Positions 9,789-36,495 of a stretch of 64,000 nt of DNA are shown in pieces. This DNA is from Candidatus Palauibacter sp. Lineage in GTDB: Bacteria; Gemmatimonadota; Gemmatimonadetes; Palauibacterales; Palauibacteraceae. Under the pieces are notes generated by a model. The model was not told where the DNA came from. It made no database searches and saw only the letters and a list, made by a program, of their open reading frames with translations. How positions within the stretch are numbered: position 1 is the stretch's first letter; each line of letters starts with the position of its first letter. Both the position numbers and the translations under genes were made by a program. Location of the stretch: assembly GCF_965222475.1 (NCBI RefSeq), contig NZ_CBDCUB010000001.1, positions 810,982 through 874,981 of the forward strand, written 5' to 3'.

Positions 9789-10706
9789 ATGGCGGCGCAG
9801 ATCCTGGATGGACGGCGAATCGCGGCCGAGATTCGTTCGGAGGTGGCGTCCCGGGTGCGGGTCCTTTCCCGGACCGGCGTGCGGCCCGGTCTCGGCGTGG
9901 TGCTCGTCGGGGACGACCCGGCGTCCCACGTCTACGTCCGGATGAAGACCCGCGCATGCGAGGAAGCGGGGCTCCACGCGCGCGATATCACACCGCCCGC
10001 CGATATCGGACAGGCGGACCTCCTCTCGATCGTCGATGAACTGAACGCGGACCCGGAAATCCACGGGATCCTGGTGCAGCTTCCCCTGCCGCGGCACCTG
10101 GACGAGCGGGAAGTGACCGAGAGGATCGATCCGGCCAGGGACGTCGACGGATTTCATCCCGTGAACCAGGGGCGCATGGCACAGGGAGACCCGCACGCGT
10201 TCCGGCCCGCGACGCCCGCCGGCGTGCAGGAATTGATCCGGCGGACGGGCGTCGACACCTCGGGGGCCCACGTCGTGATCGTCGGCCGCTCGAACATCGT
10301 CGGGATGCCGATGTCCCAGATCATGTTGCAGAAGGAGCCGGGCGCGAACGCCACGGTCACGGTCGCCCACAGCCGGACCCGGGACCTCGGGGCGGTGACC
10401 CGCCAGGGCGAGATCCTGATCGTCGCGGTGGGGCGGCCGGAGATCGTTCGCGGCGACATGGTGCGGGAGGGCGCCGTCGTCATCGATGTGGGCGTGAACC
10501 GGGTCGAGGATCCTTCGCTCGAGCGGGGATACCGGCTGGTCGGCGACGTCGCGTTCGACGAGGCCGCGGAGCGCGCGAGCTGGATCACGCCGGTCCCGGG
10601 GGGTGTGGGGCCGATGACGATCGCCATGCTGCTTCGGAACACCGTGACGTCGGCGGAGCGGATCGGGTGCGTGGCACCGGCGGAGGCCGCGCGGGCGGCG
10701 GGATGA
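9789..10706 (+). CDS. folD: Bifunctional methylenetetrahydrofolate dehydrogenase/cyclohydrolase
   Basis: 305 aa. Canonical FolD (…ILDGRRIAAEIR…GLGVVLVGDDPASHVYVRMK…VGRSNIVGMPM…). Confidence 0.92.
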   Translation: MAAQILDGRRIAAEIRSEVASRVRVLSRTGVRPGLGVVLVGDDPASHVYVRMKTRACEEAGLHARDITPPADIGQADLLSIVDELNADPEIHGILVQLPLPRHLDEREVTERIDPARDVDGFHPVNQGRMAQGDPHAFRPATPAGVQELIRRTGVDTSGAHVVIVGRSNIVGMPMSQIMLQKEPGANATVTVAHSRTRDLGAVTRQGEILIVAVGRPEIVRGDMVREGAVVIDVGVNRVEDPSLERGYRLVGDVAFDEAAERASWITPVPGGVGPMTIAMLLRNTVTSAERIGCVAPAEAARAAG

Positions 10707-12031
10707 GCACGCGCGGCCAGGCCTCGCTGTTCGGGGAGGGGGAAGGGGAGAGGGACATCCGGGCGGAGCCCGCGGCCGCCGCCCCGCCGCCGGTCCGCGA
10801 CGGCCGGTCGCCGGAGTCTGCGGTCACGGTCTCGGAACTCAATGAGGCCGCCCGGGGGACGCTGGAATCCCGCTTCGGGAACCTCTGGGTGCGCGGCGAG
10901 GTCGCGAACTGGAGGGTCTCCCCCGCGGGTCACCGCTACTTCTCGCTCCGGGATCAGGATCGCGACGCGAGTGTGTCGTGCGTCCTCTTCCGCGGTGACG
11001 CCTGGCGGCTGCCGGCGGATCCGGACGCGGGGATGGAGGTCTTCGTGCAGGGGCGCCCCACGCTCTATCCCGCGCAGGGTCGATTCCAGCTGCGGGTCCG
11101 CTCGATCGAGATGGCGGGGGAAGGGCTGTGGAGGATCGCGTTCGAGCGGCTGCGCCGGCGTCTGGACGCGGAGGGACTGCTGGCGGCCGATCGAAAGCGG
11201 CCGCTGCCGCCGTTCCCGCGCCGCATCGGCGTCGTGACCGCGCGAAAGGGCGCGGCGCTCCAGGACGTGCTCATCGTGCTCCGGCGGCGGGCCCCGTGGG
11301 TCGATGTCGTGGTGCGCAACTGCCGGGTCCAGGGCGAGGGGGCGGCGCTCGAGGTTCGGGATGCGCTGCGGCGTGTCGCCGAATGGAGCGCGCTCGGCCC
11401 CGGCTCGACCCTCGACGCGATCATCCTGAGTCGGGGCGGTGGGTCCACGGAGGACCTCTGGTGCTTCAACGAGGAGACCGCGGTGAGGGCGGTCGCCGAG
11501 AGTCCGGTCCCCGTGATCTGCGCCATCGGGCACGAGGTCGACGTGACGCTCTGCGAGTTGGTGGCCGACCTGCGGGCGCCGACCCCCTCGGCGGCGGCGG
11601 AACTCGCGGTGCCGGACATCCGGCGCGTGCGGGACTCGCTCGACACGACCGGAAGAGGGCTGGCACTAGGGCTGCGCCGCTTCGTCACGCGCGGACGGGA
11701 TCGGGTAGATGCGATCGGGCGACGCCTCCCGGCGGCCGCCGGCCATGTGCGGGACGTCGCGAAGCTGCGGCTGGAGGGCGTCGAGAAGCGACTCCCGCCG
11801 GGGATCGATCGAGCCCTCGCCCGGTCGCGTGCGCGCCTGGCCGGTCTCGCCGCCACTCTCGCCGCCCTCAGCCCCCTCGAGACCGTGGCCCGCGGATACG
11901 CCGTCGCCACAGACCTCGAGGGCCGGCGCCTCACGCGTGTCGAGGACTTCGAGCCCCGAACCCGCTTCCGGCTCCGCGTCCGCGGAGGCCGGGTCGACGC
12001 GACCGCCGATGCGGTGGAGTCGGAGACATGA
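10703..12031 (+). CDS. xseA: Exodeoxyribonuclease VII large subunit
   Basis: Start ATG 10703 (MSTRGQ…) overlaps the folD stop (ATGA). It has an OB-fold N-terminus (…VRGEVANWRVSPAGHRYFSLRD…) and the ExoVII catalytic core. Confidence 0.85.
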   Translation: MSTRGQASLFGEGEGERDIRAEPAAAAPPPVRDGRSPESAVTVSELNEAARGTLESRFGNLWVRGEVANWRVSPAGHRYFSLRDQDRDASVSCVLFRGDAWRLPADPDAGMEVFVQGRPTLYPAQGRFQLRVRSIEMAGEGLWRIAFERLRRRLDAEGLLAADRKRPLPPFPRRIGVVTARKGAALQDVLIVLRRRAPWVDVVVRNCRVQGEGAALEVRDALRRVAEWSALGPGSTLDAIILSRGGGSTEDLWCFNEETAVRAVAESPVPVICAIGHEVDVTLCELVADLRAPTPSAAAELAVPDIRRVRDSLDTTGRGLALGLRRFVTRGRDRVDAIGRRLPAAAGHVRDVAKLRLEGVEKRLPPGIDRALARSRARLAGLAATLAALSPLETVARGYAVATDLEGRRLTRVEDFEPRTRFRLRVRGGRVDATADAVESET

Positions 12032-12321
12032 CGGCGTCGTCCGAACGCGAGTTCGAGTTCGAGCGGACGGTCCGCGAACTGGAGGAGATCGTCGAGCGTC
12101 TCGACCGGGAGGACATCGGCCTCGACGAGGCGATCCGGCTCTTCGAGCGGGGCATCGAACGCCTCGGGGAGGCGCGCCGCTGGCTCGAGGCGGCGAGCGG
12201 CAAGGTCGAGGAGCTGATCGGCACCTCGACGGGGAGGCTGGACACGAAGCCTCTGGAGGCGGACGGACCGGCGGTCCACGGGGCCGGCCCGGGGTCGGAG
12301 GCGCCGGAGGCCCCGGCGTGA
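12028..12321 (+). CDS. xseB: Exodeoxyribonuclease VII small subunit
   Basis: The table ORF starts at 11128, overlapping xseA. The real start is ATG 12028 (MTASSEREFEFERTVRELEEIVERL…), which overlaps the xseA stop (ATGA). Confidence 0.8.
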   Translation: MTASSEREFEFERTVRELEEIVERLDREDIGLDEAIRLFERGIERLGEARRWLEAASGKVEELIGTSTGRLDTKPLEADGPAVHGAGPGSEAPEAPA

Positions 12322-28400: not shown

Positions 28401-28805
28401 GGCAGAGGCGGAGGCGGTTTCGGCGGCGGCGGCGCGGGCGGGTGGCAGGACCGGCCCGCCGAGCGCTATCCGCGGGCGGGACAGGCCGCGGGCGCCCGGG
28501 GCGGAGCGGCTGCGGCGGCGAGCGAGGCTCCCGCCGGCGGTGGGGCCGGCGAGGGCGGTCCCGATCCGGCGAGCATGCGGCAGGTGTTCCAGCAGCTGAC
28601 ACAGGCCATGCGTGAGCGCGGTGGCGGAGGCGGATTCCGGCGCTTCTTCGGCGGTGGCGGAGGTGGCGGCGGCGGCCTGGCCGACCCCGGCACCTACACG
28701 GTCGCGATCACGCTCGGCGAGGAGACCTTCACGACCACGCTCGAAGTCGTTCGCAAGGAGGGCTTCGGCTTCTGGGACGAGCCGGACACGGAAGACCGGC
28801 GATAG
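25454..28805 (+). CDS. Secreted BNR/Asp-box repeat protein (sortilin/VPS10- or GH74-like), with one apparent +1 frameshift near 27900
   Basis: Signal peptide and multiple S-x-D-G-G-x-T-W/F boxes (SVDGGLTW, TKDGGDTW, STDAGDTW, SEDGGETW, TDDGGETF, STDRGGSW). The frame switches at CGC-GGG-A|GAG, and a conserved-looking continuation (…EYGAEVSYFIPEDVADQ…VRWTFNRR…) follows in the +1 frame. The C-terminal tail is Gly-rich and low-complexity. Confidence 0.7.
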
Positions 28806-28902
28806 CGGAAGGGTACCGCGCGGGCGGCGAACCTCCGCGGCCCGCGCGGTGTCCCAAGACTCGACAGCCGATCGAAGGGCTCTGCGAACGGCCACCGGGC
28901 GC

Positions 28903-30237
28903 ATGGACAGCGGCAGCGGGCGGAAAATGAGCGAGACGGGCGGAGGAGAGGGGACGGACGCGTCGATCCCGGGGAAGATCCGGAAGCGACGCATGCTGCA
29001 GATCGCGCTCATCTACCTGGGCGCGGGGTGGCTGTGCGTCGAGATCACCGACTTCATCGTCGGGAACTACGGGTTCTCCAGGAAGATCCTCGACACCGTC
29101 GTCTTCCTTTCCATTCTCGGCTTCCCCGCCTTCCTCATCATCGGTTGGTTCCACGGCGAGAAGGGCCCGCAACGGATCCGCCGCGCCGAGAGGTGGCTGC
29201 TGGTCACGCTGGCTTCGCTGGGGGCGATCGGCACGTACCGAATCGCCACGGCCGAACCCACCGCGGGTGACGGCGTTGAGGCCCCTGCGGTCCGGGCTGC
29301 CGCGGATGGGACGGGAGATGCGATCACCGCCGCCGGGGAGATGCCCGACCTGGGCCCGAGTTCGCTGGCGGTCCTCCCCTTCCGGAACAACGTGCCCGAT
29401 CCGGAGCTGCAGTGGCTGGGCGCGGGCCTCGCGGACCTGCTGACGACCAACCTGGCGCAACGGCCCGACGTGGTGGTGGTCGGGCGGCAGAGTCTGTACG
29501 ACATCCTGACCGAAGGCGGACTCTCCGAAGAGGAGGAGATCCCGGAAGCGCTGGCGATGACGGTCGCGCGGAGAGCCGGGGCCCGGCTGCTCCTGTGGGG
29601 AAGCGTGACCGGGGCCCCCGACGACATGCGCATCGACGCCCACGTGATCGAACTCGAGGGCGGCACGATCTGGTGGGCCGATTTCGCGCGCGGCGGCGAC
29701 GTGTTCGAACTCGTGGATTCGCTGACGGTGGGCCTCGCGACCCAGCTGACCGGCGTGCGGCCGCCGCTGGAGGCTGCCCGCATCAGCCACCTCGGCACAC
29801 AGGACCTGGAGGCGCTGGGCGCGTTCCACCGCGCAAACGCCCTCGCCCGGGCCGGCCGACTCGAGGAGGCCGAGGCGCACTTCGAGCGAGCCGCTACGAT
29901 CGACAGCGCTTTCGCCCTCCCCCTGCTCGCATCGCGCGGCGAGTTCGCGAGCGACGAAGCCGAGCCGTCCGAGGAGGACCGGACGGAATCCGAGCGCCGT
30001 CGAGCCTCATGGCGGGAGCGCCGCGAGGCTCAGCTCTTCCGGCGGCTGCCGGATGAAGTGAAGAGCCGACTCGCGGGTCTGAGCGGCGAGGCACTGCGCG
30101 CCGCCGTGGACTCGCTGTGGGCCCGCTCCCGCTCCGCTCTGGACCTGCTTTCCGGCCAACGTCCGCCCGGCGGGACGCGACCGACCGGCCCGCCCCCGAA
30201 CCGGCCGCCACCGCGCGACCCCACACAATCCCGATAG
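28903..30237 (+). CDS. Membrane protein with a TolB-N-like/TPR periplasmic domain
   Basis: Two TM helices, then …SLAVLPFRNNVPDPELQWLGAGLADLLTTNLAQRPDVVVVGRQS…, which is the TolB-amino-terminal-like fold common in TPR regulators, followed by helical repeats. Start choice between 28903 and 28927 is uncertain. Confidence 0.55.
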   Translation: MDSGSGRKMSETGGGEGTDASIPGKIRKRRMLQIALIYLGAGWLCVEITDFIVGNYGFSRKILDTVVFLSILGFPAFLIIGWFHGEKGPQRIRRAERWLLVTLASLGAIGTYRIATAEPTAGDGVEAPAVRAAADGTGDAITAAGEMPDLGPSSLAVLPFRNNVPDPELQWLGAGLADLLTTNLAQRPDVVVVGRQSLYDILTEGGLSEEEEIPEALAMTVARRAGARLLLWGSVTGAPDDMRIDAHVIELEGGTIWWADFARGGDVFELVDSLTVGLATQLTGVRPPLEAARISHLGTQDLEALGAFHRANALARAGRLEEAEAHFERAATIDSAFALPLLASRGEFASDEAEPSEEDRTESERRRASWRERREAQLFRRLPDEVKSRLAGLSGEALRAAVDSLWARSRSALDLLSGQRPPGGTRPTGPPPNRPPPRDPTQSR

Positions 30238-30313
30238 GCCGTCGGCACGATTCCGGCGCTCGGTGGGCTCTTCGAGCTTGCCTGCCGCGCCACGCCGTGC
30301 CACTACGTACGCC

Positions 30314-33300
30314 ATGAGCGGAACCAACAAGAAGCTCACAAATGCGGTGGAGCAGTACTTCACCGACCTGCGGCGGATTCGCGCCTCCGGCGGCGCCACC
30401 GGAGAGAGGTCGAGCTATCCGGCGCTGTCGAAGCTCCTCGACGCCGTCGGCGCGACGCTCAGGCCCAAGGTGTTCTGCGTGGCGGACATGGCCGACCAGG
30501 GCGCCGGCCACCCCGACTTCGGACTCTACAGCCAGCGACAGTTACAGCGGGGCGTTCCGCGAAAAGGACAGGCTCCCGAGCGCGGCGTCGTCGAGGTGAA
30601 GTCGCCCGGCGACGACATGCAGGAGACATTCCGAGAGCAGGTGGCGCGCTACGGCGAACGCTACCGGCTGGTCCTGGCGACGAACCAGAGAGAGTTCCGG
30701 CTCACCGCCGTCGAGGCGGGCGGAGTCACTTCGACGCTCGAGTCCTTCAGTCTCGCAGGCACCGAGGCAGCCTTCGCGCACAAGCTGGAGCATCCGCGCG
30801 CCTTCGCCCGCGAGAGCGGAGCCGGGCTTGGGGAGTACCTGTCTCGCGCGCTGTCCCATCGGGCTACGCTCGTCGACCCAAAGGATGTCGCTTGGCTCCT
30901 CGCCTCCTACGCGCGCGACGGGCTCGCGCGGGTCGAAGCGGCGGGCGACCCGCCTTCGCTGAGAGGGCTGCGCTCGGCGCTCGAAGAGGCCCTGGGCGTC
31001 CGGTTCGAAGGCGCGCGGGGCACGCGCTTCTTTCACTCCACGCTGGTACAGACGCTTTTCTACGGCATTTTCTCCGCGTGGGTGCTTTGGTCTCGCCACG
31101 ACGGATCGGATGATGCCCAGTCCGTGACCGAAGGCGGCCCGGCGCGGTTCAGTTGGAGGGAAGCCGTGTGGCACCTGCGCGCTCCGGTTCTCCGCGCCCT
31201 GTTCCAGCAGGTCGCCGATCCCGGGCGCCTGCAACGGCTGGGCCTCGTCGAAGTTCTGGATTGGACGGCGGCGGCGCTCGACCGGGTGGACCGGACGGCC
31301 TTCTTCTCCCGGTTCAATGAAGGCGAGGCCGTGCCGTATTTCTACGAACCGTTTCTGCAGGCGTTCGATCCCGAACTGCGAAAGCAACTCGGCGTGTGGT
31401 ACACACCCATCGAGGTCGTTCGCTACATGGTCGCGCGCGTGGACAAGGCGCTGAAGGACGATCTCGGTATCGCCGACGGGCTCGCGGCGGAGAACGTCTA
31501 CGTACTCGATCCCTGCTGCGGCACCGGGGCCTACCTGGCGGAGGTGCTCCGGCGGATCGGCGCCAATCTGGAGGGACAGGGCTTCGGCGCGCTTACCGGC
31601 GCGAGGGTGAAGCAAGCCGCGACCGAAAGGGTGTTCGGTTTCGAGATCATGCCTGCGCCCTTCGTCGTCGCGCACTTGCAGGTCGGCTTGACCATGCAGG
31701 ATCTGGATGCCGCGCTCTCAGACGACGGCGCGGAACGGGCCGGAATCTTCCTGACCAACGCTCTGACCGGCTGGGAGCCTCACACGAGCAAGCCGCTGCC
31801 GTTCCCGGAACTGGAGGAGGAACGCGACCGGGCCGAAAACGTGAAGCAGGAGACGCCGATCCTCGTGATCCTCGGCAACCCGCCCTACAACGGCTTCGCG
31901 GGCATGGCGGTGGACGAGGAAAGGGAACTGTCGCTCGCGTACCGCAAGACGAAACGCGTCCGCAGGCCCGAAGGGCAGGGGTTGAACGACCTCTACGTCC
32001 GCTTCTTCCGCATGGCGGAGAGGCGCATTGCCGAGAAGACGGGGCAGGGAGTGGTCTGCTTCATCTCCAACTATTCCTGGCTCGACGGACTCTCCTTCAC
32101 CGGGATGCGCGAGCGCTGCCTGGAGGCCTTCGACGAGATCCGCATCGATTGCCTGAACGGCGACAAATACCGAACCGGCAAGGTCGCCCCTGACGGCTCG
32201 CCCGACCCGAGTATCTTCTCGACGGAGGGCGATCCCGTCGGCATCCAGGTCGGAACCGCCATCGCGACTCTCGTGCGCAAGCCTGAGCACGCGCCCGCCA
32301 CCGACGTTGCTTTCCGGCATCTGTGGGGACGAGCTAAGCGGACGGAATTGACCGCCACGGCGGAAACGGAACCCTCCGCACTCTATGAAGGGGTCGGACC
32401 TATCTTGCCGCTTGGCCTCCCCTTTTCCCCGGTGGCGGTGAGTAGCGATTGGTTCAACTGGCCGAGGTTGCCCGACTTGCTGCCGACGGCATTTCCGGGC
32501 GTGCAAACCGGCCGCGACGCGTTTCTCGTTGACATCGATCTGGACCGACTGAAGTCGCGCGTTGCGGACTACTTCGATGCGGGGATCGGCCACGAAGAAA
32601 TCGCAAGGCGCTATCCGAGAGTGATGAAGACGACGGCGCGTTTCGATGCCCGCGGCGTTCGCAATGCGCTGGTTGAACGTGGCGGGCCCGATACCGCCGG
32701 GTTCATCCGCGTCGCCTACCGACCCTTCGACAACCGTTGGCTCTACTGGGAGAAAGACACTGAGCTGCTGGACAGGAAGCGCGCAGAGTACCGCCCCCAC
32801 GTGTTCGAAGGAAATCCGTGGTTGTCCGTGGCGCAGCACCTGCGGAAGGGAGCGGTAGAACCGCAAACGGTGTTCACTGAAGAAATGGGTTCGCGCCACC
32901 TAATAGAACGGGGCACGCTAATGTTCCCCGCTTGGTTGCGCGATGACGGGCTGGGGTTGGACCTGAGCGGATCGCGACGAGCAAACCTTTCCGCAAAGGC
33001 GCAGGGCTATCTGGACCAGGTCGGTGCCGGCGTTGACGACCTCTTCCACCATGTCCTGGCAGTGCTCCACGATCCCGGATACCGCGAGGCAAACGCTGGG
33101 GCGCTGCGCATGGAATGGCCGCGCATACCGCTTCCCGGCTGGCCCGATGGCGAAGCCGAGTGCGCTGCGCAGGCCTTCGCTGAATCGGCGGAGCGGGGCC
33201 GCAGACTCGCCGCACTGCTCGACTCGGAAGTGCCCGTCCCAGGCGTTACGCAGGGCAGCTTGTCTCCAGCCATGGCCGCCATTGCCGTCCCCGCCACGAC

Positions 33301-33718
33301 GGACGGTCGAAACATGGCGAGCGAAGACTTCGCGGTCACGGTCGGGTGGGGGCACTTCGGAGCCGGCAAGGCCGTGATGCCCGGCCAGGGTCGTGTCGTT
33401 GAGCGTCCCTTCTCCCCGGCGGAGGGCGAGGCAATGGGCGACAGCCTGCCTGCGCTCGGAGAGAGCACCTTCGATGTCTATCTCAACGCACGCGCCCTCT
33501 GGCGCAACGTTCCTGCTACGGTCTGGAACTACAAGTTGGGGGGTTATCAGGTCCTCAAGAAGTGGCTCTCCTACCGCGAGAGCGGCGTCCTCGGCAGGTC
33601 CCTGCAAATCGAGGAGATCCAGCACTTCACAGCCACGGCCCGGCGCATAGCCGCGATCGTTCACGCGGTTTCTGACCCGGAGAGCCCGCTACGCTCGTAC
33701 TGGCAGCGGAACCAGTGA
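30314..33718 (+). CDS. Type IIG/IIL restriction-modification fusion enzyme (MmeI-like)
   Basis: 1134 aa. N-terminus carries GHPDFGLY…GVVEVKSPG (a PD-ExK core matching MmeI's …D…EMKSRG). The centre has methyltransferase motif I (VLDPCCGTGAYL) and motif IV (ILGNPPYNG), i.e. gamma class. The long C-terminal region has a conserved W-x-Y-K-L-G-G-Y-Q-V-L-K-K-W-L block. GC is lower than the flanks. An alternative start is at 30263. Confidence 0.8.
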   Translation: MSGTNKKLTNAVEQYFTDLRRIRASGGATGERSSYPALSKLLDAVGATLRPKVFCVADMADQGAGHPDFGLYSQRQLQRGVPRKGQAPERGVVEVKSPGDDMQETFREQVARYGERYRLVLATNQREFRLTAVEAGGVTSTLESFSLAGTEAAFAHKLEHPRAFARESGAGLGEYLSRALSHRATLVDPKDVAWLLASYARDGLARVEAAGDPPSLRGLRSALEEALGVRFEGARGTRFFHSTLVQTLFYGIFSAWVLWSRHDGSDDAQSVTEGGPARFSWREAVWHLRAPVLRALFQQVADPGRLQRLGLVEVLDWTAAALDRVDRTAFFSRFNEGEAVPYFYEPFLQAFDPELRKQLGVWYTPIEVVRYMVARVDKALKDDLGIADGLAAENVYVLDPCCGTGAYLAEVLRRIGANLEGQGFGALTGARVKQAATERVFGFEIMPAPFVVAHLQVGLTMQDLDAALSDDGAERAGIFLTNALTGWEPHTSKPLPFPELEEERDRAENVKQETPILVILGNPPYNGFAGMAVDEERELSLAYRKTKRVRRPEGQGLNDLYVRFFRMAERRIAEKTGQGVVCFISNYSWLDGLSFTGMRERCLEAFDEIRIDCLNGDKYRTGKVAPDGSPDPSIFSTEGDPVGIQVGTAIATLVRKPEHAPATDVAFRHLWGRAKRTELTATAETEPSALYEGVGPILPLGLPFSPVAVSSDWFNWPRLPDLLPTAFPGVQTGRDAFLVDIDLDRLKSRVADYFDAGIGHEEIARRYPRVMKTTARFDARGVRNALVERGGPDTAGFIRVAYRPFDNRWLYWEKDTELLDRKRAEYRPHVFEGNPWLSVAQHLRKGAVEPQTVFTEEMGSRHLIERGTLMFPAWLRDDGLGLDLSGSRRANLSAKAQGYLDQVGAGVDDLFHHVLAVLHDPGYREANAGALRMEWPRIPLPGWPDGEAECAAQAFAESAERGRRLAALLDSEVPVPGVTQGSLSPAMAAIAVPATTDGRNMASEDFAVTVGWGHFGAGKAVMPGQGRVVERPFSPAEGEAMGDSLPALGESTFDVYLNARALWRNVPATVWNYKLGGYQVLKKWLSYRESGVLGRSLQIEEIQHFTATARRIAAIVHAVSDPESPLRSYWQRNQ

Positions 33719-34446
33719 GCGTGATCTTCTTCTTCGCGAAGTTCCTTGCCAAGGAAGCGTACGTCCATGACGTCATGGCTGGCAGGCTCCACGTGAATCG
33801 TCTGGCATGTTTCAAGGACTTCGAGGAAGAAGCGACCTGCAACCGCGGCGACAGGCATGAAGGTGTTGTACACTGGCTTCAGCCTGATGGGATACGCCTT
33901 GTTCTCAACGGACGCGACCTGACCCCCGATCTTGCGGGACCAGTCGAAATTGGAATGAGCTGGCTCAATCACATTCATGTATTCTGTCTCCATGCGGCTC
34001 ACAGCGGCAGCTTAGACCTAACCGACTTGACTTCTGGTACGATTGATGGCCTGAGGGAAAAGCTGGAGATACCCAGTGAATGTCGACAACTCGGCGAACA
34101 TGCAATTATAATCAGAAACGTTCGACAGTTTATTGATCGGATTGAGACTGCCGCCAAGCTCAAGGACCACCGAGTCCATCGGGGATTGGTCCGATACTAC
34201 AACCCAGACACGTTCCATGGACGCTTCGATGGCATCGAAGCGGCATTCAGAAAACGTGATGAATATAGACACCAACGAGAATACCGATTTGCCATCGATA
34301 CTCGGACTACTGGCGTTGATCCTCTGATTCTCAATATCGGAGATATCAGCGACATCGCAATCCCCTGCAAAACAGCCACTATCAATGATATGTTTTTGCG
34401 TGGCAGCATTGAGATCAAACGCCCAAGTCGAGGGGGGGCGATCTGA
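33715..34446 (+). CDS. Orphan 243-aa protein, low GC (~50%); function unknown
   Basis: The GTG start overlaps the RM gene stop (GTGA). Composition is non-shadow-like (F/K/I/N/H-rich), in sharp contrast to the ~70% GC background. No motif I can assign. Confidence 0.5.
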   Translation: MSVIFFFAKFLAKEAYVHDVMAGRLHVNRLACFKDFEEEATCNRGDRHEGVVHWLQPDGIRLVLNGRDLTPDLAGPVEIGMSWLNHIHVFCLHAAHSGSLDLTDLTSGTIDGLREKLEIPSECRQLGEHAIIIRNVRQFIDRIETAAKLKDHRVHRGLVRYYNPDTFHGRFDGIEAAFRKRDEYRHQREYRFAIDTRTTGVDPLILNIGDISDIAIPCKTATINDMFLRGSIEIKRPSRGGAI

Positions 34447-34497
34447 AGGGCGATACTTGTGGACTCCTGCGACAAGGAGGATCGACACCTGAACTGG

Positions 34498-36240
34498 CTA
34501 CGCGTCAGGCGTAGGTCGGTACTCGACGAGCGCGGACTGGCCGACAATGCTGACGGTCCGGACGAGCCGTTCGGCGCCGTCGGGGTCGGTGACCCGCAGT
34601 TCCTCACCCGGGAAGAAGTCGACGGGCTCACGTCGTCCCTCGTCGATGGCGAGGTTGCTCGCGTAGAGGTAGGTGCGGTCGAGCTTGTCCCGGATCGGGT
34701 TGAGGCTGCCCCTCAAGCCGGGGATCTCGCCTGTGCGTTCGCGAAAGATCGCCGACCTGCCAGCCGGCAGGGCGGAAAGCTCGATATCGAGCGGACCGTG
34801 GCTTGGAATCCATTCGGTCTCGACATGCGCCGCGTACCCCGCGGCGGCGGCGAAGACCGTCAGCGGAAGCTCGGTCGCATAGAGGTCGACGGTGACTTCA
34901 CCGCTTTCGCCGGTAGTTGCCGCCCTCCAGGTCTCGTTGGGGAACAGGACGAGCAGGTCGATGCCGGGCAACGGAGCACCGGCCTCGTGCGCGCGGATCA
35001 GGGCGGTCGCCGGGGTCGGCGTGGTGGGCGCGGCGGGAATCGTGAGGAACAGATCCGCGTCATCGACGACTCGATACAGGGGCTCCTCGCCACTCAGACG
35101 GCGGGTCTCTCTCATGATCGTCGGGACGCCGTCACCCCTTCGTTCCATGAAGAACTGCCGTCCGCCAGAACCGAGGATCTTCCCCGCCGGTATGCGGCCC
35201 AGCATCGAGGCGAGCGTCTGGTTACGGGTCGCCTGCCGGGAGGCCATGCTCTCGACCGTCAGGTTGTTCGGAAGAGCGCCGGGCGAGTTGATCTCGATGC
35301 GGTCGGCAAACATGGAGAGCCGTATCCGGCTACCGCGAATCGAGTAGTCTCGGTGCGCCACCGCGTTGACGACCGCTTCGAACAGCGCCCTCTCGCTGTA
35401 CTGCGGCAGATCGACACGGGCGGGCTGTTTGTGCGCGCCCACTCGCATATTGCGGACGGCGAACCTGACGGCCTCGGCGATCTGGCGGTGTAGCGGTCCG
35501 GTAATCGTGTGGGCATCCAGCTGGCCGGACGCCTGGTCCACGCCCCGGTATTGCGTGGCGCTGATGCACGCGTTGGGCAGCCATTCCTCGGGGGCGGCGG
35601 CGCACAGCAGCACGCCGGCGACCGTGGCGCGGAGGATCCCGCCCTCGTCCCGCGCCAGAAGCCCCATCTTCTCGAGGGCAAGTTTGGGATCGGCGGCGCC
35701 CTCCGAACTCAGCAGCGGCCCCCACAATGTCTTGTCCAGCGTGCGGAAACCGGTTCCCGGAACGGGCTGCTCGTCGAACCACAGAAAGCGCGCCTGAGAC
35801 CACCTCTGGGCGAGACGCAGACTCTCGTCGCTCGTCATCCTCCGCTTGGAACTGCCAAGACGGCGAAATGCGCCCCCCGGACTCTCGTGCAGAGCATAGC
35901 CGGGAGGGACCTCCACGATGAGAAGCGGCTTGCCGTCGATCTCTCCCCGGGAGGTGTCGATCTCGATTGGTGGCTTGACCGAATCGGTGCAGAGATTGAC
36001 CACGAGCTGTTCCAGCGCGTCCAGTTGGCGGCGGGTCATCCCCTGCACTTCGCCAGCATCGGTGACCCCGCAAAGCATGGCTCCGCCCCTGGCGTTCGCG
36101 AAGGCCGCCAGCTCGTCCGCGATGCTCTGCCCGTCCGGCCGGGCCGGGCGGTCGCCCCTGAACTCGAACTCCTCGAACTCCCAGTGGCTGTCTTGGCCCA
36201 GGCGGAGCCGTCGCCGGATCTCGTTTTCGTCGAATGTCAT
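34498..36240 (-). CDS. Schlafen-like AlbA_2 (putative DNA-binding) + HATPase_c_4 protein with an extra ~130-aa C-terminal domain
   Basis: Internal ATG at 36240 with GGAG 11 nt upstream (MTFDENEIRR…). N-terminus has …SWEFEEFEF…, the AlbA_2/'divergent AAA' fold. HATPase_c_4 motif …AVVNAVAHRDYS… is present. This family is often annotated 'RecG-like C-terminal/transcriptional regulator' and is frequent in defence islands. Confidence 0.75.
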   Translation of the reverse strand: MTFDENEIRRRLRLGQDSHWEFEEFEFRGDRPARPDGQSIADELAAFANARGGAMLCGVTDAGEVQGMTRRQLDALEQLVVNLCTDSVKPPIEIDTSRGEIDGKPLLIVEVPPGYALHESPGGAFRRLGSSKRRMTSDESLRLAQRWSQARFLWFDEQPVPGTGFRTLDKTLWGPLLSSEGAADPKLALEKMGLLARDEGGILRATVAGVLLCAAAPEEWLPNACISATQYRGVDQASGQLDAHTITGPLHRQIAEAVRFAVRNMRVGAHKQPARVDLPQYSERALFEAVVNAVAHRDYSIRGSRIRLSMFADRIEINSPGALPNNLTVESMASRQATRNQTLASMLGRIPAGKILGSGGRQFFMERRGDGVPTIMRETRRLSGEEPLYRVVDDADLFLTIPAAPTTPTPATALIRAHEAGAPLPGIDLLVLFPNETWRAATTGESGEVTVDLYATELPLTVFAAAAGYAAHVETEWIPSHGPLDIELSALPAGRSAIFRERTGEIPGLRGSLNPIRDKLDRTYLYASNLAIDEGRREPVDFFPGEELRVTDPDGAERLVRTVSIVGQSALVEYRPTPDA

Positions 36241-36495
36241 GGGTCTGCTCCGATGCCGGTCCCGCGCGCCATGCACGGGTACGAGCTTTCGGCGAAGGGT
36301 AACGGCCCGAGCGCGCCGGGTGGTAGCATCCCCCAGGCACGCGGTGGCCCGTTGATTGGACCTTTGACGCGGCGCGACCGGGCCCTTGGCGGGTGGACGA
36401 AGGCTGTGACAGCAGCCATGTTTCGAGAGACATGAGAGGATGGACGCGCGCCGCCTGTCCCGGGGGCGGCGTCCTCAGGGAACCAGGGAGGCCAC

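Follow-up and report, generated by a model that had tools for sequence, protein, structure and literature searches.

Does a block of unusually low GC content in the genome of a sponge symbiont encode one antiphage system, or is it a site at which separate genes have come to lie side by side? The question is raised by three adjacent open reading frames (ORF1, ORF2, and ORF3) of Candidatus Palauibacter sp. (Gemmatimonadota), which encode a restriction-modification (RM) enzyme, a small protein, and a Schlafen-like protein. We analyzed the 64,000-nucleotide (nt) stretch of DNA around them, hereafter called the window (GCF_965222475.1, NZ_CBDCUB010000001.1:810,982-874,981, forward strand); the NCBI organism name on exact matches to ORF2 and ORF3 is also Candidatus Palauibacter sp. 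The three ORFs lie where an initial annotation of this DNA had placed them, and ORF1 does carry the motifs GHPDFG..VVEVK, DPCCGTG, and NPPY that had been read in it. That annotation considered the trio a possible composite system. Our results point elsewhere: the block is probably a chromosomal Palauibacter defense hotspot that holds three independently evolving modules, each of them a single gene. ORF1 and ORF3 are unremarkable representatives of large families that have already been annotated; the parts of note are the ORF2 family and the variable slot in which ORF2 is found. The features are as follows (aa, amino acids; positions are those of the window).

29938..30237, plus strand: 3' end of a TPR/CsgG-like gene (28612..30237), co-varying with the ORF1 cassette; left edge of the genus-level variable segment
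30314..33718, plus strand: ORF1, predicted single-chain Type IIG/IIL RM enzyme, 1134 aa from the ATG at 30314 (the reading frame opens at the GTG at 30263)
30506..30601, plus strand: PD-(D/E)xK nuclease motif of ORF1, GHPDFG...VVEVK (D85, E111, K113 in 1151-aa numbering)
31508..31888, plus strand: gamma-class N6-adenine methyltransferase core of ORF1 (motif I DPCCGTG, 31508-31528; motif IV NPPY, 31877-31888)
32474..33610, plus strand: target-recognition/C-terminal region of ORF1 (Type_ISP_C PF18135, residues 738-1116)
33655..34514, no strand assigned: nested swapped cassette (last ~20 codons of ORF1, whole of ORF2, 51-nt spacer, last ~5 codons of ORF3)
33715..34446, plus strand: ORF2, 243 aa; its family is large and unnamed, and its fold is probably ADP-ribosyltransferase-like
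33847-33864, 34192-34206, 34270-34290, and 34336-34356, plus strand: ORF2 motifs GDRHEG, RYYNP, HQREYRF, and IGDISDI, respectively
34498..36240, minus strand: ORF3, AlbA_2 + HATPase_c_4 + beta-sandwich, 580 aa, resident at the site across the genus
35833..36174, minus strand: AlbA_2 domain of ORF3 (PF04326, residues 35-148)
35068..35334, minus strand: HATPase_c_4 domain of ORF3 (PF13749, residues 315-403)
34501..35004, minus strand: C-terminal all-beta region of ORF3 (residues 425-592)

Cassette swapping at one site of the Palauibacter genome

Between the TPR/CsgG-like gene and an aminotransferase gene lies a slot that was read in six related Palauibacter genomes, window included. Its contents were as follows (compared loci are given L numbers; percentages are identities to the window genes).

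Window: ORF1 + ORF2 + ORF3
L095/L096: ORF3 alone (86%), directly beside the TPR gene
L089: 548-aa HEC-07 gene (L089:12100-13746; PADLOC PDLC04161, 2.7e-103) + ORF3 (84%)
L097: ORF1 ortholog (95%) + unrelated 364-aa gene (L097:11384-12478, GC 0.61, 1-nt overlap with the ORF1 stop) + ORF3
L098: ORF1 ortholog (85%) + another unrelated 300-aa gene (L098:11381-12283, GC 0.57, 5-nt gap) + ORF3
L093/L094: ORF1 split by an IS3 element (L093:12346-17219) + frameshifted L098-type gene (L093:11617-12472) + ORF3 (90%)

With HEC-07 occupying the slot in L089, the site is therefore a defense hotspot, whose contents are of at least four kinds across the genus. The middle genes of L097 and L098 gave no significant match to Pfam or PADLOC models. 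The 548-aa gene of L089 was also compared with a gene of the same length beside an ORF2 homolog in L002, and the two are unrelated. In L093, an IS3-family element (HTH_Tnp_1 + rve) separates the enzyme gene into pieces of 791 and 354 aa; the enzyme gene and its companion have decayed jointly, and ORF3, the closest ORF3 ortholog that we found, is open.

The edges of the exchanged segments could be placed by blastn. Homology to the ORF1-less loci L089 and L095 ends at window positions 29936-29938, whereas homology to the ORF1-bearing loci L097, L098, and L093 continues through; the breakpoints for presence or absence of ORF1 are 29936-29938 and 34515. Nested within this segment is a second exchange, that of the middle gene: homology to L097 (92-93%) and L098 (87-90%) ends at 33651-33657 and resumes at 34515, with 1.19 kb and 0.99 kb of unrelated sequence, respectively, between these points. 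The swapped cassette thus includes the last ~20 codons of ORF1. Only the segment ~29938-34514 (ORF1 and ORF2) is variable among the related genomes, and ORF3, whose nucleotide identity to the sister genomes (83-92%) is backbone-like, belongs to the conserved backbone. Hence, the horizontal acquisition of a defense-type block proposed in the initial annotation is supported, but not as one unit. ORF2 would be a recently swapped cassette gene of low GC content, translationally coupled to ORF1, and ORF3 would be a resident Schlafen-like protein that stays at the site whatever adjoins it. The six genomes amount to an unusually clean natural experiment, in which an enzyme conserved at 85-95% and a Schlafen-like gene conserved at 84-90% enclose three unrelated genes.

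These data bear directly on the proposal that ORF1, ORF2, and ORF3 make up one composite three-gene antiphage system. The three genes are adjacent, and the order "Type IIG enzyme, small gene, convergent AlbA_2 protein" is found in four Palauibacter genomes, as such a system would have it. However, the gene in the middle comes from three unrelated families (ORF2 is replaced in L097 and L098), ORF3 persists without ORF1 or ORF2 in L089 and entirely alone in L095, and it behaves as backbone into which ORF1 and ORF2 have been inserted. Outside the genus the trio was found in none of 80 metagenomic loci with ORF1 homologs (50-75% identity) and in none of 87 ORF2-family loci; within 3.5 kb downstream of the ORF1 homologs, 0/80 loci had an ORF2-family or AlbA_2 gene. 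What is conserved within the genus is therefore the arrangement and not the middle gene, and outside it neither is. Given the absence of the trio elsewhere, the swapping of the middle gene, and the independence of ORF3, the composite system is unsupported and we regard it as very improbable.

The lower GC content initially described is confirmed: in a GC scan, the block is the lowest-GC 6-kb stretch of the window (0.643, against a mean of 0.693). ORF2 is the lowest-GC 732-bp stretch (51.5%; z = -5.3 against all 732-bp windows), and the GC content of third codon positions (GC3) is 0.55 in ORF2, 0.80-0.82 in ORF1 and ORF3, and ~0.9 in neighboring genes. Housekeeping genes lie on the flanks (the TPR/CsgG-like gene, the aminotransferase, an enoyl-CoA hydratase, and an RND efflux system). 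There is no integrase in the surroundings, and a search for repeats and attachment sites at the island ends gave only short, chance-level matches, in agreement with the first reading of the edges; a tRNA search located tRNAs at least 7 kb from the ends and none at the edges. A scan for promoters and terminators gave counts at background level.

A predicted helicase-less restriction enzyme and the slot behind it

Read from its GTG, ORF1 (30263..33718, plus strand) has 1151 aa; judging from the lengths and N termini of its homologs, the true start is likely the ATG at 30314, which gives 1134 aa. In Pfam, Type_ISP_C (PF18135) matches residues 738-1116 (2.5e-41) and N6_Mtase matches above its cutoff (1.2e-8), with Eco57I falling just under it (3.2e-5; 24.5 bits, cutoff 25.3). 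The PADLOC model REase_MTase_IIG (PDLC03610) matches residues 31-546 from model position 4 (2.6e-81) and therefore covers the nuclease head. The best match in the PDB is DrdV (7lo5, 1.6e-32, residues 358-957), followed by the methyltransferase regions of LlaGI and LlaBIII (5ffj and 4xqk; 1.7e-25 and 8.1e-23). The alignments to DrdV and LlaGI span methyltransferase motifs I and IV, and both DPCCGTG (aa 416) and NPPY (aa 539) are intact. D85, E111, K113, and E48 are invariant in an alignment of 26 homologs (45-97% identity), and the N-terminal profile aligns weakly but collinearly with the N terminus of DrdV, including its "PD". Pfam and motif scans found no helicase/ResIII domain, Walker A, or DExH motif in ORF1. 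Considering these domain matches and the lack of helicase motifs, ORF1 appears to be a helicase-less, Type-ISP-like single-chain Type IIG/IIL RM enzyme, most like DrdV, and should work like DrdV or MmeI. The initial view that it combines nuclease and methyltransferase and needs no separate methylase agrees with the presence of these domains and motifs in one chain; no separate methylase or specificity gene adjoins it, the neighbors being ORF2, ORF3, and housekeeping genes.

The ORF1 family is large: more than 8,000 homologs were found, and each of the 8,000 candidates that were scored fell below 1e-20. Many are ~75% identical and 1,110-1,150 aa long, and their NCBI name is "type ISP restriction/modification enzyme". 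Membership of the true Type ISP group was rejected, since there is no translocase and the PDB alignments are confined to the methyltransferase and C-terminal regions. These regions are homologous to those of the Type ISP enzymes LlaGI and LlaBIII. However, ORF1 lacks the superfamily 2 (SF2) helicase/translocase module that these have between nuclease and methyltransferase (1134 aa versus 1406-1578 aa) and therefore cannot use ATP-driven translocation and collision.

The description as MmeI-like could not be maintained either: MmeI_Mtase scored 21.9 bits (cutoff 27), while MmeI_N, MmeI_hel, MmeI_TRD, and MmeI_C gave no match, and the strong matches are to Type_ISP_C and DrdV instead. As a positive control, the enzyme of L012 matches all five MmeI models (1e-25 to 1e-82), and that of L015 matches MmeI at 1e-270. 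Among the profiles that the initial annotation had named, PF04326 and PF13749 (both on ORF3) and, in PADLOC, the Type IIG model match, and the MmeI families do not. The resemblance to MmeI (Type IIL, 5hr4) is one of principle: cutting and methylation would reside in one protein, which modifies one strand and has no partner methylase. The likeness to DrdV (Type IIL, 7lo5/7lvv) extends to the whole layout, in which one chain holds a PD..ExK nuclease at its N terminus, then a helical connector, the gamma-class N6-adenine methyltransferase, and the target-recognition/C-terminal domain, although the relationship is distant, the nuclease head is not significantly alignable, and ORF1 is ~100 aa longer. 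We infer the activity of ORF1 by analogy with these two enzymes: the target-recognition region would bind an asymmetric site, the methyltransferase would make N6-methyladenine (6mA) on one strand of host sites, and the nuclease would cut unmodified incoming DNA away from the site.

The C-terminal part of ORF1 is more diverged between orthologs (compared with L093, nucleotide identity is 72.5% here and 92% in the N-terminal part), and the tail past ...ARRIAAI is variable family-wide. A homolog with 70% protein identity, apparently broken into three ORFs, is present in a metagenome-assembled genome (MAG) of a Dehalococcoidia (L033:17000-20389, minus strand), where an ORF2-family gene lies at a distance of 6.4 kb. 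So high an identity between phyla points to recent transfer, possibly among sponge symbionts.

The exchange of genes behind the enzyme is not restricted to Palauibacter. We surveyed 52 loci with an ORF1 homolog of intact length and at least 900 nt of downstream sequence, and in 28 of them found an ORF of 150 aa or more on the same strand, with its start between -60 and +200 nt from the stop codon of the enzyme gene, in several cases with start/stop overlap. The 28 slot ORFs form 23 unrelated clusters, and their GC content is on average 8 points below that of the enzyme gene, often 0.38-0.47 (examples among L099-L178 are L104:7726-8349, L112:11063-11794, L128:2826-3455, L151:3576-4664, and L161:4076-4660). 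Of 22 slot genes scanned, three code for pentapeptide-repeat proteins and one each for DUF4062, AAA_21/AAA_15 (HEC-01A-like), AAA_5, HNH, AlbA_2, GemA, and an unrelated UbiD protein; at least half have no Pfam domain.

It is known that unannotated and defense genes lie within Hma, BREX, DISARM, and Type I systems, a pattern described as a "genomic sink" (Payne et al. 2024, bioRxiv 10.1101/2024.01.29.577857). The slot resembles this "guilt by embedding", and also the PrrC-EcoprrI pair, in that variable, mostly same-strand, unannotated or defense genes lie inside or beside restriction-type systems, as do HEC-07 in the L089 slot and the HEC-01A-like gene behind an ORF1 homolog. The difference is that embedding was described for multigene systems, whereas in this case a single-gene Type IIG enzyme is the host and the slot lies at its 3' end, often with a start/stop overlap. 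The slot thus extends guilt by embedding to a single-gene enzyme and supplies a list of candidate genes.

Whether the slot reflects a functional bond is a separate matter. ORF1 and whatever gene occupies the slot could be a functional pair, in which the enzyme acts as sensor or guard and the coupled, swappable gene (here ORF2) as a toxic backup effector released when a phage disables the enzyme, as in PrrC/EcoprrI. The tight junctions with the ORF1 stop (GTGA in the window, the 1-nt overlap of L097, the 5-nt gap of L098) would fit such a pair, and so would the frequency, diversity, and low GC content of slot genes in the survey, the presence among them of HEC-01A/AAA_21, HNH, DUF4062, AlbA_2, and pentapeptide-repeat proteins, the ORF2-family genes directly 3' of a genuine MmeI in L012 and L015, and the joint degradation in L093. 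However, about half of the ORF1-homolog loci have no slot gene, no methyltransferase lies nearer than 5 kb in more than 75% of ORF2-family loci, some slot genes come from systems shown or proposed to act alone (HEC-01), and insertion beside or inside defense genes is a known general pattern (bioRxiv 10.1101/2024.01.29.577857) that makes a functional link unnecessary. We consider a guarded pair rather unlikely and, likewise, doubt that the 3' slot stands for PrrC-like functional coupling and not for a tolerated insertion point. A broader proposal seems doubtful as well, namely, that helicase-less Type-ISP-like enzymes (in some lineages MmeI) carry a dedicated, translationally coupled 3' slot that exchanges unrelated low-GC effectors, and that ORF2 founds a divergent ADP-ribosyltransferase-like family (>4,000 clusters) of second-line defense, checked by or coregulated with the enzyme.

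ORF2, a widespread family outside current models

The GTG start codon of ORF2 overlaps the stop codon of ORF1 as GTGA, and the N terminus read from it (MSVIFFF...) agrees with that of the homologs (MSVIFFL...). The coupling and low GC content attributed to ORF2 are thus confirmed; its description as an orphan is not. ORF2 has 72 homolog clusters in a 90%-identity collection, and its family comprises 4,423 representative clusters at E<=1e-3 (429 at E<=1e-30). No Pfam, NCBIfam, or PADLOC model matches ORF2, and 46 family members gave no Pfam match even at E<=10; the family is covered by no model of these three collections. In species-representative genomes it was found at 119 loci in many phyla, with hosts that include Gammaproteobacteria, Dehalococcoidia, Acidimicrobiia, Acidobacteriota, Spirochaetia, Fibrobacter, and Blautia, and homologs are present on 11 plasmids. 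ORF2 matches PHROG 26561 (1.9e-30), although a search of a phage database gave no match. Family members are ~235 aa long and share the motifs GRxDRHEG, YY, and YQREFRF, all kept in the window protein; 14 residues do not vary among 46 sequences that are 36-54% identical to the window protein. Inside ORF2 there is also a near-consensus sigma-70-like promoter match (34083-34112, plus strand; TCGACA-18-TATAAT, 11/12), probably a by-product of the local low GC content.

The neighborhoods of the family are varied. In 78 genomes, the 146 immediate neighbors of ORF2-family genes span 140 Pfam families, and even the commonest occur in only 2-4 of the 146 (AlbA_2 in 4, HATPase_c_4 and ResIII in 3, MmeI in 2, then AAA_21, PLD nuclease, integrase, and DUF2971). 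A DNA methyltransferase was located no farther than 5 kb away in at least 20 of 87 loci, a lower bound given that the local jackhmmer search missed at least the N6_N4_Mtase of L001. In L001 the homolog adjoins an OLD-like ATPase with DUF4276 and a small methylase; in L002 it sits between a BREX-like methylase/PLD block and CBASS plus GmrSD; in the Photobacterium contigs L003 and L005 it adjoins a Type I RM + SIR2 operon; and in L006 it is near an IS21 element and a ThiF/ubiquitin-like set. In L012 and L015, the gene immediately upstream, on the same strand, codes for a genuine MmeI enzyme; the gap in L015 is 8 nt (MmeI 5hr4 match, 1.2e-270). When large genes directly upstream of ORF2 homologs were compared with the PDB, besides the MmeI of L015 we found a HamB-like (Hachiman) helicase in L038 and a histidine kinase/response regulator in L017 (not defense); that of L059 had no match. 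The family is mostly stand-alone, in variable and defense regions of many phyla, with no obligatory partner.

A reading in which ORF2 is not a defense gene at all, being a passenger or mobile-element remnant or an enzyme with an unrelated role that resides in variable regions, would account for the lack of matches to defense models, for the many loci without a recognizable adjoining defense gene, for the integrases or transposases near some of them, and for the homologs on plasmids and in a PHROG family. However, conservation is strong, with the 14 residues that never vary, occurrence is patchy though wide, the structural matches are toxin-like, and the family recurs beside restriction systems, CBASS, a HamB-like helicase, and GmrSD. 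We find this reading improbable. The same recurrence, which extends to Schlafen-like genes, together with the ADP-ribosyltransferase-like model, makes the family a concrete candidate for a new single-gene defense or toxin family.

The most frequent recurrent neighbor deserves separate treatment, since ORF2 and ORF3 could be a two-gene unit in which an ADP-ribosyltransferase-like protein is served by an AlbA_2/HATPase_c_4 partner (regulator, sensor, or antitoxin). A gene with both domains is directly downstream on the same strand, at 37-900 nt, in six distant loci (L061, L067, L070, L071, L083, and L088; hosts in Fibrobacter, Blautia, and Latescibacterota), and AlbA_2 is the top Pfam family among the immediate neighbors. 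In L070 the pair lies at 9971-10660 and 10806-12176. These distant genes may form two-gene units. Against extending this to the window, however, the six ORF2 relatives are only 25-31% identical to ORF2, the two partners scanned with Pfam do not have the beta-sandwich tail of ORF3 (that of L070 ends in a MarR-like winged helix-turn-helix and that of L061 has no extra Pfam domain), the window genes are convergent, ORF3 in the sister genomes adjoins unrelated genes or nothing, and close ORF3 homologs occur in Type I restriction operons without ORF2. A unit of ORF2 and ORF3 is therefore quite improbable, and their independence remains our preferred reading.

As to what ORF2 does, the confident structure model resembles a very divergent ADP-ribosyltransferase (ART), and its structural matches are toxin-like. 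Y159/Y160 and Q185-x-E187 (A1 numbering) are invariant in the family and lie at strand positions in the model, and the His of the GDRHEG motif is variable; residues were assigned by inspection to the ART catalytic motifs (H/R; Y or S-T-S; E or Q/E-x-E at a strand start). A link to a solved structure was sought and rejected, the family profile having 0 PDB matches at E<=10 and the best Foldseek E value being 1.8. DUF2971 is a predicted ART in which the motif-I His is poorly conserved, the Tyr is strict, and there is an ExE motif (PMC12522546), a pattern parallel to the variable His, invariant Y-Y, and invariant Q-x-E at a strand start of the ORF2 family. Aristaios, a DUF2971 protein, is a validated single-gene abortive-infection defense (PMC11381338), and the ORF2 family is like Aristaios/DUF2971 and DarT in consisting of small stand-alone proteins of defense regions and plasmids, with an ART fold that is predicted and, for the ORF2 family, only probable.

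A sequence link to DUF2971 (PF11185) was also tried and rejected, with no match among the 46 family members at E<=10 and an hhalign probability of 0.2%. The alignment of the family with three DUF2971 proteins (A2) covered only the K..Y.YQREFRF / K..W.YE.EVR segment; these three sequences were all that the local jackhmmer search found, and one of them, L060:6333-7235, is probably not the DUF2971 gene of that locus. As there is no statistically significant link to DUF2971, we call the ART-like fold of ORF2 only probable. The most likely role, in chemistry still conjectural, would be that of a single-gene toxic or abortive-infection-type effector like Aristaios or DarT. DUF2971 genes are found near ORF2-family genes in three genomes (L009:10786-11625, L020:10785-12410, and L060:1955-2818), directly downstream in L009 and L020; they could be tandem distant paralogs or could merely share residence in an island.

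ORF3, the resident Schlafen-like protein

ORF3 (34498..36276, minus strand) is convergent to ORF2 and likely starts at the ATG at 36240, which gives 580 aa. It carries, in this order, AlbA_2 (PF04326; 6.5e-17, 62.6 bits, cutoff 25.3, residues 35-148) and HATPase_c_4 (PF13749; 6.2e-19, 68.2 bits, cutoff 26, residues 315-403), and has no Pfam match past residue ~425, just as first described (two domains and an extra C-terminal one without a Pfam match). It also matches PHROG 12156 (3.9e-45) and, through the HATPase_c_4 region, PDB 3lmm (3.1e-5). Full-length homologs have 66-90% identity, and those of ~584 aa are abundant at 66-68%, including some from Poribacteria; the C-terminal part is therefore a conserved feature of the family. 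By its domains, ORF3 is a protein of known architecture and putative function with a beta-sandwich tail.

Bacterial AlbA_2 domains are significantly associated with defense systems; that of Avs9 kills cells via an acidic active site, and Schlafen-like AlbA_2 nucleases have three to four conserved acidic residues (PMC12680541). ORF3 resembles these AlbA_2 defense proteins (Avs9 and the eukaryotic SLFN/SAMD9) in its significant AlbA_2 domain; unlike Avs9, it is not a STAND NTPase, its AlbA_2 domain is joined to HATPase_c_4 and the beta-sandwich tail, and in the window copy Gln occupies the position of the first conserved acidic residue. The motif in question reads LGQDSHWEFEE (nt ~36140-36175, minus strand) where homologs read LGEDSxxEFKE. 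The Gln codon is at 36159-36161 (residue 28 of the 580-aa protein), and seven residues on, Glu replaces Lys. Glu occupies the site in 110 of 111 readable homolog clusters (of 120), other Palauibacter orthologs included, and Gln only in the window protein; other acidic residues, E33 and the D of GVTD, are retained. The site is presumably the first acidic residue of a Schlafen/Avs9-type active site, a mapping made by spacing and not by structure.

Several points weigh against a hotspot of three independent defense modules. The roles of all three genes are predicted from their sequences, and any antiphage effect of the block follows from these predictions. ORF2 could act with ORF1, in view of the GTGA coupling and of its relatives in the same 3' position behind MmeI in L012 and L015, or with the AlbA_2 protein that is its immediate downstream neighbor in the six distant loci. 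Having Gln at a nearly invariant, presumably catalytic Glu, this copy of ORF3 may be impaired or catalytically altered. Finally, the gene calls in the compared loci are simple longest-ORF calls. We nevertheless keep the independent modules as the probable explanation.

The ORF3 family is often embedded in Type I restriction operons. A homolog with 67% identity lies in an operon of the order hsdM-[ORF3 homolog]-hsdS-TIR/SEFIR-AAA_15/21-hsdR (L091/L092), and its start overlaps the hsdM stop. In the same operon (L091:8394-19169, and L092), HsdS is fused to a nucleotidyltransferase (NTP_transf_2/Polbeta), and a SEFIR/TIR protein and an AAA_15/AAA_21 ATPase precede hsdR.

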